This document shows, one piece after another, positions 3,068 through 64,000 of a DNA stretch of 64,000 bases. Numbering within the stretch: the first letter of the stretch is position 1; the number at the start of each line of letters is the position of its first letter. The stretch is from contig OY740792.1 of assembly GCA_963514005.1 (NCBI GenBank), positions 21,018,001 through 21,082,000 on the forward strand, read 5' to 3'. The notes under the pieces are model-generated. The model did no database searches. It was not told the DNA's origin and worked only from the letters and a program-made list of their open reading frames with translations. The DNA is from Raja brachyura (taxonomy: Eukaryota). The position numbers were made by a program, and so were the translations under genes.

Positions 3068-3136
3068 CTCTAAATCTTTCTTGCCCCTGGCCATCAATAT
3101 TAGATACTGGGGTTGATCTGAAGACAGGCGGTTTGT
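3068..3136 (-). CDS. Repeat exon, 69 nt, phase 1-1: DKPPVFRSTPVSNIDGQGQERFR
   Basis: Acceptor ctttcttttaaatttattacag|, donor gag|gtacag. Open in frame, and VFRSTPVS matches VFRPTPVS of exon 30311. Confidence 0.75.
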
Positions 3137-7654: not shown

Positions 7655-7714
7655 CTTGCGTAGTGCCAGAACTACTGGAGGATGACTGAATAACAGTTGA
7701 TGTTGTCTCAGCTC
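7655..7714 (-). CDS. Exon, 60 nt, phase 1-1: GAETTSTVIQSSSSSSGTTQ
   Basis: Acceptor ttttattttgctgacccctgcag|, consensus donor aag|gtaagt. Open Ser/Thr-rich frame with the same phase as the array. Confidence 0.8.
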
Positions 7715-29150: not shown

Positions 29151-29297
29151 TTATTAATGTACCCACTTCTGAGAGCAGCTGTGTGTTTTTTTTTACAGTC
29201 TAATTATCTTCAGTACTTCCCTTACCCCAGCATTTCTTTACCCTGAATCATGTATTTCATAATCCCCACTGCTAGTAGTAATGTAACTGACCATTAC

Positions 29298-29378
29298 CTG
29301 TACGGTCCACTTTGGCATTAGTTTTATGCACTGGCTTGGAGGTGATGATTGACGAACTATCCTTTGGAGGATCAGATA
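29298..29378 (-). CDS. Repeat exon, 81 nt, phase 1-1: VSDPPKDSSSIITSKPVHKTNAKVDRT
   Basis: Acceptor ttttattttttatctcttgcag|, donor cag|gtaatg, open frame. Confidence 0.8.
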
Positions 29379-30310: not shown

Positions 30311-30400
30311 CTGAGTGATCTGTTTTCCCAGTGCCACGCACTTGAGATACTGGGGTTGGTCTGAACACATTGGGAGTGTCAGAAGAGGAAAACTTATAGT
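30311..30400 (-). CDS. Repeat exon, 90 nt, phase 1-1: DYKFSSSDTPNVFRPTPVSQVRGTGKTDHS
   Basis: Acceptor tcttttgtcctcgacag|, donor cag|gtattt. Carries the SDTPNVF.P.P repeat motif. Confidence 0.85.
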
Positions 30401-31464: not shown

Positions 31465-31557
31465 CTGCCAAATCCTTGTTCTCTATGTTATCAAGTGCAG
31501 ATTCTTGTTCTTGATTGAATATATTTGGTGGAGTGCCAGAAATTAGCTGTGTATAAT
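31465..31557 (-). CDS. Repeat exon, 93 nt, phase 1-1: DYTQLISGTPPNIFNQEQESALDNIENKDLA
   Basis: Acceptor tttttttaatcccttatag|, donor cag|gtaatt, open frame, repeat motif present. Confidence 0.85.
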
Positions 31558-33650: not shown

Positions 33651-33734
33651 CTGTGATCTCCTTGTCTTCTTTTTTACCAAGCTCAGGAGTTGAACTGAAC
33701 GTGTGAGAAGTTTCAGAATTTGTTGGTATAGGGG
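33651..33734 (-). CDS. Repeat exon, 84 nt, phase 1-1: APIPTNSETSHTFSSTPELGKKEDKEIT
   Basis: Acceptor ttctctttgtttcttctag|, donor cag|gtaatt. Homologous to exon 43392 (TSH.F..TP...EDK..T). Confidence 0.85.
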
Positions 33735-36190: not shown

Positions 36191-36439
36191 AGAACAATTA
36201 TTAGTCAAACCATCATTCAGTTCTGTATCATATATATTCTTGTGTTCATATTTTTGATATCAAGTCAATTTGTAGAATTGGCACTACATCACAGTTTAAC
36301 GCAAATACCTTTGAATTCCTGGTCTTCTGTGTTACCACGTTCAGATATAGGGGATTGATCAAATACATGAGTAGTGCCAGAGTTTGTCAGGTTACGGTCT
36401 GCAAGGGACAACATAGAAACCAAATACAAACGTCACATT

Positions 36440-43391: not shown

Positions 43392-43481
43392 CTGTGAATT
43401 TCTTGTCTTCTATGTGGTCAATCTCAGAAACAGGGGTTGGAATAAACACATGTGAAGTGTCAGAGATTGGCAGTTTATGGT
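43392..43481 (-). CDS. Repeat exon, 90 nt, phase 1-1: DHKLPISDTSHVFIPTPVSEIDHIEDKKFT
   Basis: Acceptor tttctttgtcatcctttacag|, donor cag|gtacta. Prototype short repeat. Confidence 0.88.
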
Positions 43482-44081: not shown

Positions 44082-44162
44082 CTGTCTGTTGTTTCTCTCC
44101 TGCATTATAAACATGGGTTGGATTAGACAATTTTGCAGTCTTAGATGTTGAGAGTTCATGGT
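44082..44162 (-). CDS. Repeat exon, 81 nt, phase 1-1: DHELSTSKTAKLSNPTHVYNAGEKQQT
   Basis: Acceptor tttgttatttgttacag|, donor cag|gtattc. The DHELSTS start is shared with the 144-nt exons. Confidence 0.85.
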
Positions 44163-47350: not shown

Positions 47351-47494
47351 CTGTACCTTCAGTATCACTTATCTTAGCATGCTCAGGTTCTGGGATTGGA
47401 TTGATCACATTAGCAATATCAGTGACTGGCAGCCCACCGTCAGGCATTAAAGTGAACACGTTAGTAGTAGCTTCTGAGATTTTCACCTCATGGT
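47351..47494 (-). CDS. Repeat exon, 144 nt: DHEVKISEATTNVFTLMPDGGLPVTDIANVINPIPEPEHAKISDTEGT
   Basis: Acceptor cttccttcttatctcttcag|, donor cag|gtacct. Overlaps ORF 47253..47486. Confidence 0.9.
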
Positions 47495-50682: not shown

Positions 50683-50823
50683 CTTTAACTTCAGTATCTT
50701 TTACATTAGCACGTTCAGGTTCTGGGATTGGATTGATCGTATTAGGAGTATCAGTGAGTGGCAGCACATAGTTCGGCATTAATGTGACCACAAACGGAAT
50801 ATCTGAGCTTGGCACCTCATCAT
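50683..50823 (-). CDS. Repeat exon, 141 nt: DDEVPSSDIPFVVTLMPNYVLPLTDTPNTINPIPEPERANVKDTEVK
   Basis: Acceptor ccttccttcttatctctttag|, donor aag|gtactt. Confidence 0.9.
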
Positions 50824-53388: not shown

Positions 53389-53511
53389 CTGCAACTTTAA
53401 TATCTATATCTTCAGACTTGGTTATGGGATTGAGGATATTAGGAATGTCAGTAGCTTGTGGATCAGAGTCTGGGATTAAACTGAACATGTTAGAAGTTGG
53501 CACCTCATGGT
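53389..53511 (-). CDS. Repeat exon, 123 nt: DHEVPTSNMFSLIPDSDPQATDIPNILNPITKSEDIDIKVA
   Basis: Acceptor cttcttcttattccctcag|, donor cag|gtacct. Carries in-frame deletions relative to the 141-nt unit. Confidence 0.88.
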
Positions 53512-55180: not shown

Positions 55181-55321
55181 CTGTAACGTCAAAATCTTTT
55201 ATCTTAGCGCGCTCAGTTTCTGGGATTGGATTGATCACATTAGGAGTATCAGAAACCAGAGGGTTTAGGCCTGATATTAAAGTAAGCACTTTAGGAGTGC
55301 GAGAAGTTGAAACCACGTGGT
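55181..55321 (-). CDS. Repeat exon, 141 nt: DHVVSTSRTPKVLTLISGLNPLVSDTPNVINPIPETERAKIKDFDVT
   Basis: Acceptor tgttttttatcccttcag|, donor cag|gtattt. Confidence 0.9.
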
Positions 55322-56647: not shown

Positions 56648-56779
56648 CTGCAACTTCTGTATCTCTCAAACTAGTTCGTTGAGATTCTAGGATTGGATCG
56701 ATCACATGAGTAACCGGCAGCTCATGGTTTAACATTAAAGTAAACACTTTACTAGTGTCCGAGGTTGGCACCACCTGGT
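56648..56779 (-). CDS. Repeat exon, 132 nt: DQVVPTSDTSKVFTLMLNHELPVTHVIDPILESQRTSLRDTEVA
   Basis: Acceptor cttcttccttgtcccgagcag| (GAGCAG tandem), donor cag|gtactt. Confidence 0.87.
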
Positions 56780-57282: not shown

Positions 57283-57429
57283 CTGTTATTTCTGTATCTT
57301 CTATTTTAGTAGTGTCAGACGCGTGGATGGCATTGGGAACATTTGAAATGTCAGTGACAGGTACGTTAATGTCTGAGATTAAACAGAAGATGTTAGGGAT
57401 GTTAGAGGTTGGCAACACAGTCCGCTGTA
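57283..57429 (-). CDS. Repeat exon, 147 nt: VQRTVLPTSNIPNIFCLISDINVPVTDISNVPNAIHASDTTKIEDTEIT
   Basis: Acceptor tcctgcttacttccag|, donor cag|gtattt, open frame. Confidence 0.8.
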
Positions 57430-58202
57430 CTGGAAGTAAGCAGGATATAAAATGTTCAAATTACATAATTATTGTTGAAAATTGAACATTACAATTACAT
57501 TGGATGGTTTCCAATGCGGCAATAAATGCCACAGGTAAAACAGATTTTATGTAACACAAAACTACCCCGACAATATAATTGATTAAGTTCACTAATTCAA
57601 TATCATTCAAAATAATTTAACGCACAACATTACAAGAGACTCTCCACACTGCAACATTACATTCATTATTTAGAGACTATTCATAATTCAATAAATCAGA
57701 AGAAACACCGACAGAATAGGTTAACACATCACTTCTCAAACAAACTCAAAGTTTTATGAAAAATGCCCATTTATTCCAGCATAGATGAGCAAAATGCTTA
57801 ACTCCAGGTGATATGCAGTGCATTTCCCAATTGACAATATCTGTACCAGAACACAGAGCAGATTGCATGTATTTTAGGATAGGTCTGCTAAAATCAAGGT
57901 CATGCATGGTGGAATGGGAAAAATGGGAATGTGGAAAATGATAGTGAGGCCCTGGGTTTGGCCAACAACGAAGAAGCAAATTAAGGAAAGATGTGTGCAG
58001 TAGGCTTGTTTTCCATACTCTTCCATACTTTACACACAACCAATACAAATTTTCACATAAATATTTATGTAAAAGCATAACATGGCATCTGTGGCACGTG
58101 TCCAGACTTTTTTCCTTAATTGTGATAAACCTAAGCATGCACTTTTAATTATTTGCTCCATTGCTTACTTTAAACATAAAATACACAGATTGTTAGAACT
58201 AC

Positions 58203-58346
58203 CTGTAACATCTGCCTCTCCTATCTTAGTAGGATCAGGTTCTGGGATTGCATTGATCACACTGGGAATGTCTGTAGCTTGCCGTTCATAGCCAGATATA
58301 AAAGGGAACACTGTAGTTGTGTGAGCAGTTGATAATTCATGGTCTT
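58203..58346 (-). CDS. Repeat exon, 144 nt: EDHELSTAHTTTVFPFISGYERQATDIPSVINAIPEPDPTKIGEADVT
   Basis: Acceptor ccctttcatccttag|, donor cag|gtagtt. Confidence 0.88.
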
Positions 58347-58820
58347 CTAAGGATGAAAGGGAAGCCAAATTACAAAATTCTAAATATCTTCTGATCATAC
58401 ACCTGCGCTAAGTTGTTTCCTATGTGTATTAGCTCATTGAACACTATCGTTATTTAATTATTTATACAGTATAGAACAACGTCCTCCAGCCCATTGAAAT
58501 TATACAAAACAGAGCGATCCCATTAGTCCCATACCACTGTTTTGTCCTTGCAGCAATCACTCACATCGTTGCTAACAATAACGAAGCAAGTTAAGGATAG
58601 ACATCTAAGGGTACAGTATGTTTGTGTTTTCCAGGCTCTTCCATGCCTTACACACAACCAACACAAATATTCGCGTAAATATTTATGTAAAAGCATAACA
58701 TGGCATCTGTGGCACGTGTCCAGACGTTTTTCCTGAATTGTGATAAACCTAAGCATGCACTTTTGATTATTTGCTCCATTGCATATTTCAAACATAGAAT
58801 ACACATATTGTTAGGACTAC

Positions 58821-58964
58821 CTGTAAATTCTGCCTCTCCTATCTTAGCAGGATCAGGTTCTGGGATTGGATTAATCACACTAGGAATGTCTGTGGCTTGC
58901 CGTTCATAGCCAGATATAAAAGAGAACACTGTAGTTGTGCGAGAAGTTGACAATTCATGGTTTT
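58821..58964 (-). CDS. Repeat exon, 144 nt: ENHELSTSRTTTVFSFISGYERQATDIPSVINPIPEPDPAKIGEAEFT
   Basis: Acceptor tttttaatccttag|, donor cag|gtagtc. Confidence 0.88.
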
Positions 58965-59451
58965 CTAAGGATTAAAAAGTAAGCCAAATTATAAAATTAC
59001 AAACATCTTCTGAATGTACACCTGCACTGAGTAGTTTCCTATGTATATTAGCACATTGAACTTTATCATTAGTTAATTATTTAATACAGTATAGAACAAA
59101 ATCATCCAGCTCACTTGAATTATATGAGATCAGAACCTAATAGAGCAATCCCATCAGTCTCATACCACCTCTTATTTCCTTGCAACAGGCTCTCACATTG
59201 TTTCCAACAACAAAGAAGCCAGTTAAGGAAAGGCATCTATGTGTAGAGTATGTTTGTGTTTTCCAGGCTCTTCCATGACTTACACACAACCAATACAAAT
59301 ATTCACATAAATATTCATGTAAAAGCATACCATGTCAACAGTGGCACGTGTCCAGATACTTCTCCTCAATTGTGATAAACATAAGCATGCACTTTTAATT
59401 ATTTGCTCCATGCTTACTTCAAACATAAAAAACACAGATTGTTAGAACTAC

Positions 59452-59595
59452 CTGTAACATCTGTCTCGACTATCTTAGTAGGATCGGATTCGGGGATTGG
59501 ATTGATCACACTGGGAATGTCTGTGGCTTGCCGTTCATAGCCAGATATTAAATTGAACACTTTAGTTGTGTGAGAAGTTGATAATTCATGGTCTT
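59452..59595 (-). CDS. Repeat exon, 144 nt: EDHELSTSHTTKVFNLISGYERQATDIPSVINPIPESDPTKIVETDVT
   Basis: Acceptor cctttttatccttag|, donor cag|gtagtt. Confidence 0.88.
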
Positions 59596-60075
59596 CTAAG
59601 GATAAAAAGGAAGCCAAATTACAACATTCGAAATATCTTCTGAACATAAACCTGCGCTAAGTAGTTTCCTATGTATATTAGCACATTGAACACTACCATT
59701 ACTTAATTATTTAATACAGTACGGAACAAAGTCATCCAGCTCATTTGAACGACACGAGAACCTAATAGAACTATCCCATCAGTCCCATACCCCCTCGTAT
59801 TTCCTTGCAACACTCACTCACATTGTCGTCAACAAGGACGAAGCAAGTTAAGGAAAGACCATAAGTGCACAGTATGTTTGTGTTTTCCAGGCTCTTCCAT
59901 GGGCTTACACACAACCAATCCAGATATTCATATAAATATTCATGTAAAAGCATAATGGCATCTGTGGCACATGTTCACAATTTTTTCCATAAATGTGATA
60001 AACCTAAGCATGCACTTTTGATGATTTGCTCCATTGCTTATTTCAAACATAGAATACACATATTGTTAGGACTAC

Positions 60076-60219
60076 CTGAAAATTCTGCCTCTCCTATCTT
60101 AGCAGGTTCAAGTTCTGGGATTGGTTTGATCACACTGGGAATGTCTGTGGCTTGCCGTTCATAGCCAGATATTAAAGAGAACACTGTAGTTGTGTGAGAA
60201 GTTGACAATTCATGGTCTT
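60076..60219 (-). CDS. Repeat exon, 144 nt: EDHELSTSHTTTVFSLISGYERQATDIPSVIKPIPELEPAKIGEAEFS
   Basis: Acceptor cctttttatccgtag|, donor cag|gtagtc. Confidence 0.88.
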
Positions 60220-60688
60220 CTACGGATAAAAAGGAAGCCAAGTTACAAAATTCTAAGCATCTTCTGAATGTACACCTGCGCTAAGTAGTTCCCTATGAAT
60301 ATTAGCTAATTGAAAATAATCATTACTTAATTATTTAATACAGTAAGGAACAAAGTCATCCAGCTCATTAGCATGATATGAGAACCAAACAGAGCGATCC
60401 CATCAGTCTCATACCGCCTCTTATTTCCTTGCAAGCCTCTCTCACATTGTCGCCAACAATGACGAAGCAAGTTAAGGAAAGACAGCTAAGTGTACACTAT
60501 GCTGTGTATTGCATGCTCTTCCATGACTCACACATAGCCAATACAAATATTCACATAAACACCTAGCATGCCATCTGTGGCACATGTCCAGAATTTTGTC
60601 CTTAATTGTGATAAACCTAAGCATGCACTTTTAATTATTTACTCCATTGCTTATTTCAAACATGGAATACACATATTGTCAGAACTAC

Positions 60689-60832
60689 CTGCAAATTCTG
60701 CCTCTCCTATCTTTGTAGGATCGGCTTCTGGGATTGGTTTGATCACACTGGGAATGTCTGTGGCTTGCCGTTCGTAGCCAGATATTAAAGAGAACACTGT
60801 AGTTGTGTGAGAAGTTGACAATTCATGGTCTT
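60689..60832 (-). CDS. Repeat exon, 144 nt: EDHELSTSHTTTVFSLISGYERQATDIPSVIKPIPEADPTKIGEAEFA
   Basis: Acceptor cctttttatccgtag|, donor cag|gtagtt. Confidence 0.88.
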
Positions 60833-61299
60833 CTACGGATAAAAAGGAAGCCAAGTTACAAAATTCTAAGCATCTTCTGAATGTACACCTGCACCAAGTA
60901 GTTTCCTATGAATATTAGCACATTGTAAATAATCATTACTTAATTATTTAATACAGTAAGGAACAGTCATCCAGCTCATTAGAATTATATGAAAACCAAA
61001 CCGAGCGATCCCATCAGTCTCATACCGCCTCTTATTTCCTTGCAACGCGCGCTCACATTGTCGCAAATAATGAGGAAACAAGTTAAGAAAAGACAGCTAA
61101 GTGTTCACTATGCAGTGTTTTGCATGCTCTTCCATGCTTTACACACAACCAATACAAATATTCACATAAACGCCTAGCATGGCATCTGTGGAACCTGTCC
61201 AGAAATGTTTCCTTAATTGTGATAAACCCAAGCATGCACTTTTAATTATTTACTCCATTGCTTATTTCAAACATGGAATACACGTATTGTTAGAACTAC

Positions 61300-61443
61300 C
61301 TGTAACATCTGCCTCTCCTACATTAGTAGGATCGGGTTCTGGGATTGGATTGATCACATTGGGAAGGTCTGTGGCTTGCCGTTCATAGCCAGATATTAAA
61401 GTGAACACTTTAGTCGTGTGTAAAGTTGATAATTCATGGTCTT
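61300..61443 (-). CDS. Repeat exon, 144 nt: EDHELSTLHTTKVFTLISGYERQATDLPNVINPIPEPDPTNVGEADVT
   Basis: Acceptor cctttttatccttag|, donor cag|gtagtt. Confidence 0.88.
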
Positions 61444-61508
61444 CTAAGGATAAAAAGGAAGCCAAATTACAAAATTCTAAATATATTCTGAACATACACC
61501 TGCGCTAA

Positions 61509-63420
61509 TAGACAATAGGTGCAGGAGTAGGCCATTTGGCCCCTCGAGCCAGCACCGCCATTCAATGTGATCATGGCTGATCATTCCCAATCAGTACCCC
61601 GTTCCTGCCTTCTCCCCATACCCCCTGACTCCGCCATTTTTAAGAGCTCTATTTAGCTCTCTCTTGAAAGCATCCAGAGGACCTGCCTCCACCGCCCTCT
61701 GAGGCAGAGAATTCCACAGACTCACCACTCTCTGTGAGAAAAAGAGTTTCCTCTTCTCCGTTCTAAATGGCTTACTCCTTATTCTTAAACTGTGGCCCCT
61801 GGTTCTGGACACCCCCAACACCGGGAACATGTTTCCTGCCTCTAGCATGTCCAAGCCCTTAACAATCTTATATGTTTCAATGAAATTCCTTCTCATCCTT
61901 CTAAACTCCAGAGTGTACAAGCCCAGCTGTGCCATTTTCTCAGCATATGACAGTCCTGCCATCCCAGGAATTAACCTTGTAAACCTATGCTGCACTCCCT
62001 CAATAGCAAGAATGTCCTTCCTCAAATTAGGGGACCAAAACTGCACACAATACTCCAGGTGCGGTCTCACTAGGGCTCTGTACAACTGCAGAAGGACCTC
62101 TTTGCTCCTATATTCGATTCCTCTTGTTATAAAGGCCAACATGCCATTCGCTTTCTTCACTGCCTGCTGTACCTGCATGCTTACTTTCATAGATTGATGT
62201 ACAAGGACCCCCAGATCCCGTTGTACTTCCCCTTTTCCCAACTTGACCCCATTTGGATAGTAATCTGCCTTCCTGTTTTTGCTACCAAAGTGGATAAGCT
62301 CACATTTATCCGCATTAAACTTCATCTGCCATGCATCTGCCCACTCCCCCAACCTGTACAAGTTACCCTGCATTCTCATAGCATCCTCCTCACAGTTCAC
62401 ACTGCCATCCAGCTTTGTGTCATCTGCAAATTTGCTAATGTTACTTTGAATCCCTTCATCCAAATCATTGATGTATATTGTAAATAGCTGCGGTCCCAGC
62501 ACCGTGCCTTGCGGTACCCCACTAGTCACTGCCTGCCATTCTGAAAGGGACCCATTAATCCCTACTCTTTGTTTCCTGTCTGCCAACCACTTCACTATTC
62601 ATGTCAGCACTCTACCCCCAATACCATGTGCCCTAATTTTGCCCACTAATCTCCTATGTGGCACTTTATCAAATACTTTCTGAAAGTCCAGGCACACTAC
62701 ATCCACTGGCTCTCCCTTGTCCATTTTCCTAGTTACATCTGCAAAAAATTCCAGAAGATTAGTCAAGCAGGATTTCCCCTTCGTAAATCCATGCCGACTC
62801 GGACTGATCCTGTTACTGCTATCCAAATGTGCGGCTATCTCATCTTTTATAATTGACTCCAGCATTTTCCCCACCACTGATGTCAGGCTAACTGGTCTAT
62901 AATTCCCCATTTTCTCTTTCCCGCCTTTCTTAAAAAGTGGGATAACATTAGCTACCCTCCAATCCACAGGAACTGACCCTCAGTCTATAGAACATTGGAA
63001 AATTATCACCAATGCATCCACGATTTCCAGAGCCACTTCCTTAAGTACCCTGGGATGCAGACCATCAGACCCTGGGGATTTATCAGCCTTCAGTCCCATC
63101 AGTCTCTCCAACACCATTTCCTGCCTAATGTGGATTTCCTTCCGTTCCCCTGTCACCCCAGATCCTCTGGCTACTACGATATCAGGAAGATTATTTGTGT
63201 CCTCCTTAGTGAAGACAGATCCAAAGTACCTGTTCAACTCATCTGCCATTTCCTTGTTCCTCATAATAAATTCACTTTTTTCAGTCTTCATGGGTCCAAC
63301 TTTGGTCTTAACTAATATTTTCCTCTTCACATACCTAAAGAAGCTTTCACTATCCTGCTTTATATTCTTAGCTAGCTTACCTTCGTACCTTATCTTTTCT
63401 CCCCGTATGGTCTTTTTGGT
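61509..63420 (-). mobile_element. Young CR1/HER1-type LINE inserted in an array intron
   Basis: ORFs 62980, 62599 and 61591 form one ORF2 frame broken by two TGA stops. Tail is ctattgtcta. The insertion splits the unit sequence gcgctaa|gtagtttcc. Confidence 0.97.
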
Positions 63421-63829
63421 TAAGTAGTTTCCTATGTATATTAGCATATTGAATACTATCATTATTTAATACAGTATGGGACAAAATCATCGAGCACATT
63501 TGAATGATACGAGAACCTAATAGAGCGATCCCATCAGTCCCATACCCCCTCGTATTTCCTTGCAACACTCACTCACATTGTTGCCAACAATGACGAAGCA
63601 AGTTAAGGAGAGACCATAACTGCACAGTATTTTGTGTTTTCCAGGCTCTTCCATGGGCTTACACACAACCAATCCAGATATTCATATAAATATTCATGTA
63701 AAAGCATAATGGCATCTGTGGCACATGTTCACACTTTTTTCCATAAATGTGATAAACCTAAGCATGCACTTTTGATGATTTGCTCCATTGCTTATTTCAA
63801 ACATAGAATACACATATTGTTAGGACTAC

Positions 63830-63973
63830 CTGAAAATTCTGCCTCTCCTATCTTAGCAGGTTCAAGTTCTGGGATTGGTTTGATCACACTGGGAATGTCT
63901 GTGGCTTGCCGTTCATAGCCAGATATTAAAGAGAACACTGTAGTTGTGTGAGAAGTTGACAATTCATGGTCTT
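63830..63973 (-). CDS. Repeat exon, 144 nt, same sequence as 60076..60219
   Basis: Acceptor cctttttatccgtag|, donor cag|gtagtc. Confidence 0.88.
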
Positions 63974-64000
63974 CTACGGATAAAAAGGAAGCCAAGTTAC

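Follow-up and report, generated by a model that had tools for sequence, protein, structure and literature searches.

The window analysed is a stretch of 64,000 nucleotides (nt) from the skate Raja brachyura (assembly GCA_963514005.1, contig OY740792.1, positions 21,018,001 to 21,082,000 of the forward strand), and its right-hand end holds part of a tandem array of exon+intron units on the minus strand of a gene identified below as ABI3BP (TARSH). Extended coordinates carry the window numbering past both window ends; the window and its 200 kb flanks together cover 264 kb, with an N count of 0. The complete array comprises 15 exon+intron units over 15.2 kb (extended 57961-73150, contig positions 21075961-21091150) and runs past the window edge, and the seven window exons are its 3' half. 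The features of the array are listed below.

57961..64000, minus strand: 3' portion of the exon+intron array lying in the window; the full array covers extended 57961-73150
57961..57968, plus strand: left edge of the array, GCCAACAA; this 8-mer recurs at the other end, extended 73143-73150
58203..58346, minus strand: array exon e1, type A (DVT at its end); by position, orthologous to the final repeat of Leucoraja and Amblyraja
58821..58964, minus strand: array exon e2, type B; a contig of sequencing run X20, guessed to be RNA, matches its full length
59452..59595, minus strand: array exon e3, type A
60076..60219, minus strand: array exon e4, type B; DNA identical to e7
60689..60832, minus strand: array exon e5, type B
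61300..61443, minus strand: array exon e6, type A
63830..63973, minus strand: array exon e7, type B
Extended starts 64443, 67364, 67975, 70378, 70998, 71571, 72197 and 72770, minus strand: array exons e8-e15
59870..60690, no strand: near-identical tract, likely young, approximate limits; partner ~63620-64445 (extended)

All 15 array exons are 144 nt long on the minus strand, with AG/GT ends, phase 1-1 and an open frame, and the array therefore has the hallmarks of tandem symmetric exon duplication, namely homologous exons and introns, equal end phases and a length that is a multiple of three. An earlier, sequence-only reading of the window had described seven stop-free exons of exactly 144 nt, spaced by 618, 631, 624, 613 and 611 nt, with exon-end types in the order A-B-A-B-B-A-B and with insertions and deletions (indels) confined to the introns. 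The starts, spacings, type order and exon integrity were all reproduced; the count of seven holds for the window, whereas the full array has 15 units, ends at extended 73150 and reads ABABB-ABABB-AABBB. Mean identity between units is 86.8% (range 83.0-99.2), and the introns free of insertions are 429-487 nt long, 81-99% alike and make up ~77% of the unit. The dot-plot comparison of the window with itself gives strong off-diagonal matches across 57961-64000 at offsets of 1, 2 and 3 units. A genome search with a 311-nt unit fragment returned at least 17 matches, every listed one at the array locus, and the term satellite, used by the earlier reading, does not suit a repeat confined to a single locus. 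Tandem Repeats Finder left the array undetected at a period limit of 500, which is shorter than the unit.

The host gene was identified from its domains and relatives. Three skate proteins each align in ~40 colinear tblastn segments at 75-100% identity on the minus strand, from extended +161822 to -34158. Among five exons of the gene scanned against Pfam, three downstream exons match TARSH_C (PF21731) and one upstream exon matches fn3, all over the cut-off; the single exon L013:5048-5260, scanned alone, had no Pfam match, nor did one 48-amino-acid (aa) array unit, and a listing of long open reading frames (ORFs) alone gave no gene name. Both relatives that were scanned for domains contain two fn3 stretches. 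A profile of 14 repeat exons matched 19 proteins, one of them unnamed and the other 18 from cartilaginous fish, mostly named target of Nesh-SH3 or abi3bpa, and 17 of these 18 carry TARSH_C and FN3. No named protein outside cartilaginous fish was matched by the exon profile in a word-based search with ~8000 candidates scored; as each such protein search scored only that many, more distant relatives of the unit may exist outside cartilaginous fish. These results identify the host gene, at the level of sequence, as ABI3BP, and the 48-aa unit looks lineage-specific within reach of the profile search. The genome has two TARSH_C loci, the array gene and contig C8:26503884-26517942, and the latter is likely a paralogue, FNDC1. 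FNDC1 has more N-terminal FN3 domains than ABI3BP. Older single-copy repeat exons of the same family flank the array on both sides.

Introns and exons of the array have accumulated changes very differently. A total of 27 gap events was counted, four of which were dropped as junction artefacts from excising insertions, leaving 23 intron indels, 18 of them not multiples of three, against 0 in exons. Exons changing as fast as the introns would be expected to show 5.8 frameshifts, 2.8 stop codons and 2.5 altered splice sites, and none was found (P about 1.5e-5). The ratio of nonsynonymous to synonymous divergence (dN/dS) is 0.81 (dN 0.100, dS 0.124), the 43 replacement and 16 silent alleles are consistent with neutrality (p=0.65), and replacements are fewer than expected at intron rates (43 observed, 65 expected, P=0.003). 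Constraint, which the earlier reading had proposed to check by these two measures, is evident in the indels and weak at the level of residues. By these counts, reading frames and splice sites appear to be kept and residues to be nearly free to drift.

The edges of the array bear on its origin. The partial introns at the two ends sum to one unit intron and overlap by 8 nt, which are GCCAACAA, and beyond this 8-mer the flanks agree with the unit consensus at only 7/30 and 3/30 positions. The right-edge alignment needs a 4-nt gap just inside the 8-mer, and the 8-mer also lies within internal array introns. Because the 620-bp unit can still be aligned over its full length and the two array edges can be made out, a founding junction can be proposed, and the two edges likely mark a founding duplication at an 8-nt microhomology.

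A recent amplification with a 3-unit higher-order repeat had also been proposed for the array, partly from two similar distances, 1848 nt between 59452 and 61300 and about 1841 nt between 60076 and 63830 after subtraction of a 1913-nt long interspersed nuclear element (LINE). Both distances were recovered, but they are uninformative, since the sums of three consecutive units all (12/12) fall within 1772-1873. A shuffle test over nine lags and 15 units, with uncorrected p values, gave an identity of 0.880 at lag 3 against a null of 0.867 (p=0.066), the lowest p value at lag 2 (0.033) and 0.052 at lag 5, none of which survives correction. A 5-unit period, suggested by the type string, was also rejected as not significant (DNA p=0.052, protein p=0.043, uncorrected). 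The lag-3 signal corresponds to one 825-nt tract with six differences, in which the right part of i3, e4 and i4 match i6, e7 and i7: e4 and e7 are identical in DNA, i4 and i7 are 99% alike (5 sites differ) and the right part of i3 is 98% alike to that of i6. The remainder of the supposed 3-unit block is ordinary (e5/e8 91%, i5/i8 83%, e6/e9 88%), and a new tandem duplication of three units was rejected on these grounds, i5/i8 and e6/e9 being no more alike than the average. The tract is most likely gene conversion over an older duplication, given that e6/i6 and e8/i8 are 93-94% alike but e4/i4 and e7/i7 98-100%. A second tract of 409 nt with six differences occurs at lag 2, and the best-match partner switches along most units. 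This mosaic similarity, together with the absence of lesions, supports the part of the sequence-only reading in which coding exon+intron units are kept in frame and shaped by unequal exchange. Other parts did not stand: the deletion thought to be private to introns 60220-60688 and 60833-61299 is a 12-nt deletion present in 6/14 introns (i4, i5, i7, i9, i12 and i14), and intron types do not track exon types, as i2, beside a B exon, is 83-84% identical to i4/i5 and closest to i10.

The array did not arise recently: its units average 87% identity, and it is found in three other skates. RefSeq models of Leucoraja erinacea (XP_055500955.1/958.1), Amblyraja radiata (XP_032888575.1) and Rhinoraja longicauda (XP_078265648.1) show the same gene, the same 48-aa repeat, the same position and the same A/B types, and 21 skate isoforms contain 15-16 repeats in Leucoraja, 8-13 in Amblyraja and 9-11 in Rhinoraja. 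Mid-array order differs: Leucoraja has 16 copies with a 4-unit repeat, Amblyraja has four identical units, and R. brachyura has 15 units with no periodicity. In the Leucoraja protein the 4-unit repeat is of genuine higher order (lag 4 identity 0.908, 0/5000 shuffles). The units e1-e4, the four 3'-most, best match the last four Leucoraja and Amblyraja repeats position by position at 85-94%. On a quick tree of 193 repeats and 47 columns, which resolve little, all skate array repeats and the single ray exon form one clade, with a support of 93 in the Shimodaira-Hasegawa-like approximate likelihood ratio test (SH-aLRT), and an A-type clade (SH-aLRT 92) includes all four skates. The orthologous repeat is single in the two myliobatiform rays Hemitrygon and Mobula. 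Since the array and its A/B types are common to four skates and the 3'-most units match by position, the amplification is placed by sequence comparison before the split of the sampled skates.

The array repeats were already present in the automatic models of three skates, and the locus is now assigned to ABI3BP and its history corrected. The Amblyraja orthologue XP_032888575.1 is named 'target of Nesh-SH3', whereas the Leucoraja orthologue of ABI3BP is mislabelled 'mucin-2' in RefSeq. A literature search produced no paper on the skate ABI3BP array, as judged from titles and abstract openings, with subscription journals thinly covered and supplements excluded.

Mucin proline-threonine-serine (PTS) domains have about 40% Ser+Thr, with Pro. 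The 15 units of the array add 720 residues, 48 per unit, with 14% T, 11.7% E, 9.4% S, 8.9% P, 23.5% S+T and 18.6% Asp+Glu, no Cys and no N-glycan sequon, so that with its S+T and P contents the array falls short of a PTS domain and is mucin-like at most. The array protein carries a net charge of -0.13 per residue and lies on the disordered side of the charge-hydropathy line, and AlphaFold2 predicted no secondary structure for one 47-residue unit with 14 sequences (predicted template modelling score, pTM, 0.14). A Ser-Gly pair is present in 14/15 units; these pairs lack an acidic cluster, and for that reason no claim is made for a proteoglycan.

In mammals, the matrix protein ABI3BP acts through integrin beta-1 (PMC6426741). 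Part of its disordered middle is removed by splicing as osteoblasts differentiate (PMC13518942), and this middle shows increased inclusion in osteoarthritic cartilage (PMC9239745). Given the disorder-type composition, the unit fold without structure and the spliced middle of mammalian ABI3BP, the array is predicted to form an extended acidic spacer, probably O-glycosylated, the length of which would vary by exon skipping. The public skate models skip one or two whole 48-aa units with the rest in series (Rhinoraja X15, X16 and X25; Leucoraja X5), which points to cassette exons. In run X20, from another organism and only guessed to be RNA, reads cover 11/11 exon-containing bins and, outside the LINE, 0/10 bins of intron alone; one of its contigs runs from 58821 to 58966, the exon being 58821-58964.

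Two further observations concern the acceptors and unit number. AAG directly follows TAG at the acceptor (e.g. window 60217-60225) of 14/15 array exons, forming a tandem NAGNAG that e2 has lost and that could drop one residue; Rhinoraja models X1-X6 differ by one residue in length. A short contig of run X1 at window 61146-61207 has i12/i14 intron-type letters and a depth of 35.3, ~3x the single-copy depth of 11-12; the assembly contains two introns of this type, and since contig depth does not measure copy number, the value hints only weakly at an additional unit. Read depth as a copy-number test was rejected, although run X1 averages 40.8 over the array and 13.4 in the flank, because the array figure adds up the depths of contigs that overlap and stem from all 15 paralogues, and run X1 may be the source sample.

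Taken together, it is highly probable that the middle of skate ABI3BP contains 15 intact symmetric 144-nt exons, shared among skates, likely derived from one microhomology duplication and predicted to encode an acidic disordered spacer of skipping-set length. In the proposed mechanism, a single exon with ~240 nt of intron on each side would have been duplicated at GCCAACAA in the skate lineage, and the array would then have grown and been reshuffled by unequal crossing-over and gene conversion, with offsets that shifted among 2, 3 and more units, while the units at its 3' end stayed. Selection would purge frameshifts, stops and splice-site losses and barely act on residues; each 48-residue unit would add an extended, probably O-glycosylated segment between the N-terminal FN3 and the C-terminal FN3 and TARSH_C of a secreted matrix protein, and cassette skipping would produce isoforms of graded length.

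Several points weigh against this account. The lesion test assumes independent Poisson changes, an assumption that shared ancestry and conversion violate, and silent changes are also fewer than expected at intron rates (16 observed, 23 expected, P=0.07); because synonymous sites thereby vary less than introns, part of the exon conservation may reflect homogenisation or splice-enhancer constraint. The choice of conversion over duplication followed by deletion for the e4/e7 tract is drawn from the 93-94% likeness of e6/i6 and e8/i8. Tree support comes from a quick tree with 47 columns, and no guitarfish or sawfish protein turned up among the relatives, so that the amplification can be dated no more closely than to before the divergence of the sampled skates. 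Disorder is only weakly supported by a fold computed for a single 47-residue unit from 14 sequences, and a genuine mucin domain would have more S+T than the 23% seen here. The isoforms counted in skates come from automatic annotation, and the reads behind them are not visible. Run X20 comes from another organism and is guessed RNA, its introns may simply fall under the 90% likeness cut-off, and no exon-exon joint was seen in it, the LINE having swamped the joint table.

Against this background, the earlier reading, of a coding satellite that was amplified recently and has a regular higher-order repeat of three units, has very little probability. The near-identity of e4/i4 with e7/i7 (100% and 99%) and of the right parts of i3 and i6 (98%) would fit such a repeat, and one of true higher order does exist at lag 4 in the Leucoraja protein; in R. 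brachyura, by contrast, lag 3 is not significant, even the best of nine lags is lag 2, the third member of the supposed repeat is mismatched, and the array is common to three other skates. Criteria for a higher-order repeat satellite would include a multi-unit block with raised identity throughout, of which there is none in the array, and a high copy number or several loci, whereas the array has 15 units at one locus. That the array, or its e4/e7 block, is an assembly artefact, or that the extra exons are unspliced junk, is extremely unlikely. The exact identity of e4 and e7 invites the suspicion, and the assembly comes with no spanning reads or RNA from the species, but the 264 kb are free of N, i4 and i7 differ at five sites, insertions of three different mobile elements anchor the array, it is also present in the independent assemblies of three skates, contigs of run X3 (another organism) lie on unit-specific stretches with 0-5 differences, and all 15 exons are intact.

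A mutually exclusive cluster, with one array exon per transcript, is likewise very unlikely. It would suit exons that are equal in length and phase and highly similar, and human ABI3BP is listed with a predicted cluster of 10 mutually exclusive exons that was lost in mouse and rat (PMC5740500). All 21 skate automatic models nevertheless contain 8-16 units in series and differ by whole-unit skips, and symmetric exons can be included jointly with no frame penalty. On general grounds, an intron length of 429-487 nt is too great to prevent joint inclusion. The human gene, compared by description only, shares with the skate gene a matrix protein with two FN3 domains, a disordered middle that is alternatively spliced in human and probably also in skates, and a lineage-variable cluster of similar exons, but the human cluster is classed as mutually exclusive whereas the skate units appear in series (PMC6426741, PMC9239745, PMC13518942, PMC5740500).

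The serial skate array has parallels elsewhere. Titin PEVK, tropoelastin and the CD44 variable exons are cases of tandem exon duplication in repeat-rich spacers, and as in these the skate array has symmetric exons multiplied with their introns, a length probably varied by skipping and turnover by unequal exchange; unlike in these, the 620-bp skate unit is fully alignable and both edges are readable. With higher-order repeats of the alpha-satellite type it shares monomer types (A/B) and local near-identical blocks, but it is coding, restricted to a single locus and to 15 copies, and has no repeated multi-unit block. The array is a tidy natural case of the birth of an exon array at a readable microhomology junction, followed by growth and concerted turnover, with frame kept and residues free. 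It is an old, skate-wide array that is still turning over, a fairly ordinary expansion that does not change the general view; it would gain weight if the length of the spacer turned out to be under selection or regulated by tissue.

Other exons of the gene have multiplied in other lineages. Hemitrygon and Mobula have 3-4 near-identical copies of the orthologue of the exon at 47351-47494 (clade support 99), and Stegostoma ABI3BP has an alternating two-type (two-exon) repeat series. A more speculative and rather improbable extension is that the ABI3BP middle is a recurrent exon-amplification hotspot selected for length and not sequence, amplifying one exon 11-16x in skates, another 3-4x in stingrays and devil rays and a two-exon pair in carpet sharks. 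It would act as a splice-tuned ruler between matrix-binding ends, with ~720 extra residues adapting the skate tissue matrix and unit number varying between individuals.

Three array introns are interrupted by insertions: a LINE, a terminal-inverted-repeat element and a second LINE. The first, which we take to be CR1-like, has two in-frame stops ahead of its terminal stop. The element in i8 (extended 64853-67148) is 2.3 kb long, with 37-nt terminal inverted repeats that are 89% alike, flanking TAA and short repeats inside, and is presumably of a non-autonomous PIF/Harbinger type. The second LINE (extended ~68320-70100) is 5'-truncated, belongs to the same family as the first (89% over 1214 nt), lies at a different site in the unit and has a partly inverted fragment nested inside it. 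The intronic position of all three elements was dropped as evidence, since introns already account for most of the unit. The first LINE and the single-copy exons of the gene in the window, the latter colinear with the skate proteins unless stated otherwise, are as follows.

61508..63420, minus strand: 5'-truncated LINE reverse-transcriptase fragment, 1913 nt, in intron i6, sense to the gene, TAA on both sides
57283..57372, minus strand: first single-copy ABI3BP repeat exon beyond the 3' end of the array; its acceptor set from the exon start in skate models
~56648-56779, 55181-55321, 53390-53511, 50683-50823 and 44082-44162, minus strand: single-copy ABI3BP exons
~47351-47494, minus strand: single-copy ABI3BP exon, placed with the help of the repeat tree
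~43392-43481, 36309-36398, 33651-33734, 31465-31557 and 30312-30400, minus strand: single-copy ABI3BP exons
~29296-29378, 7655-7714 and 3068-3136, minus strand: single-copy ABI3BP exons

Upstream of the array, extended 77958-78098 holds an open, splice-intact repeat exon that has a long branch, groups with a Narcine repeat and is absent from the mapped skate models; it may be decaying or rarely used. Just beyond the 5'-most mapped exon, an apparently intact two-ORF LINE of L1-like look (393-aa and 1285-aa frames) occupies extended 167598-173244 on the plus strand.

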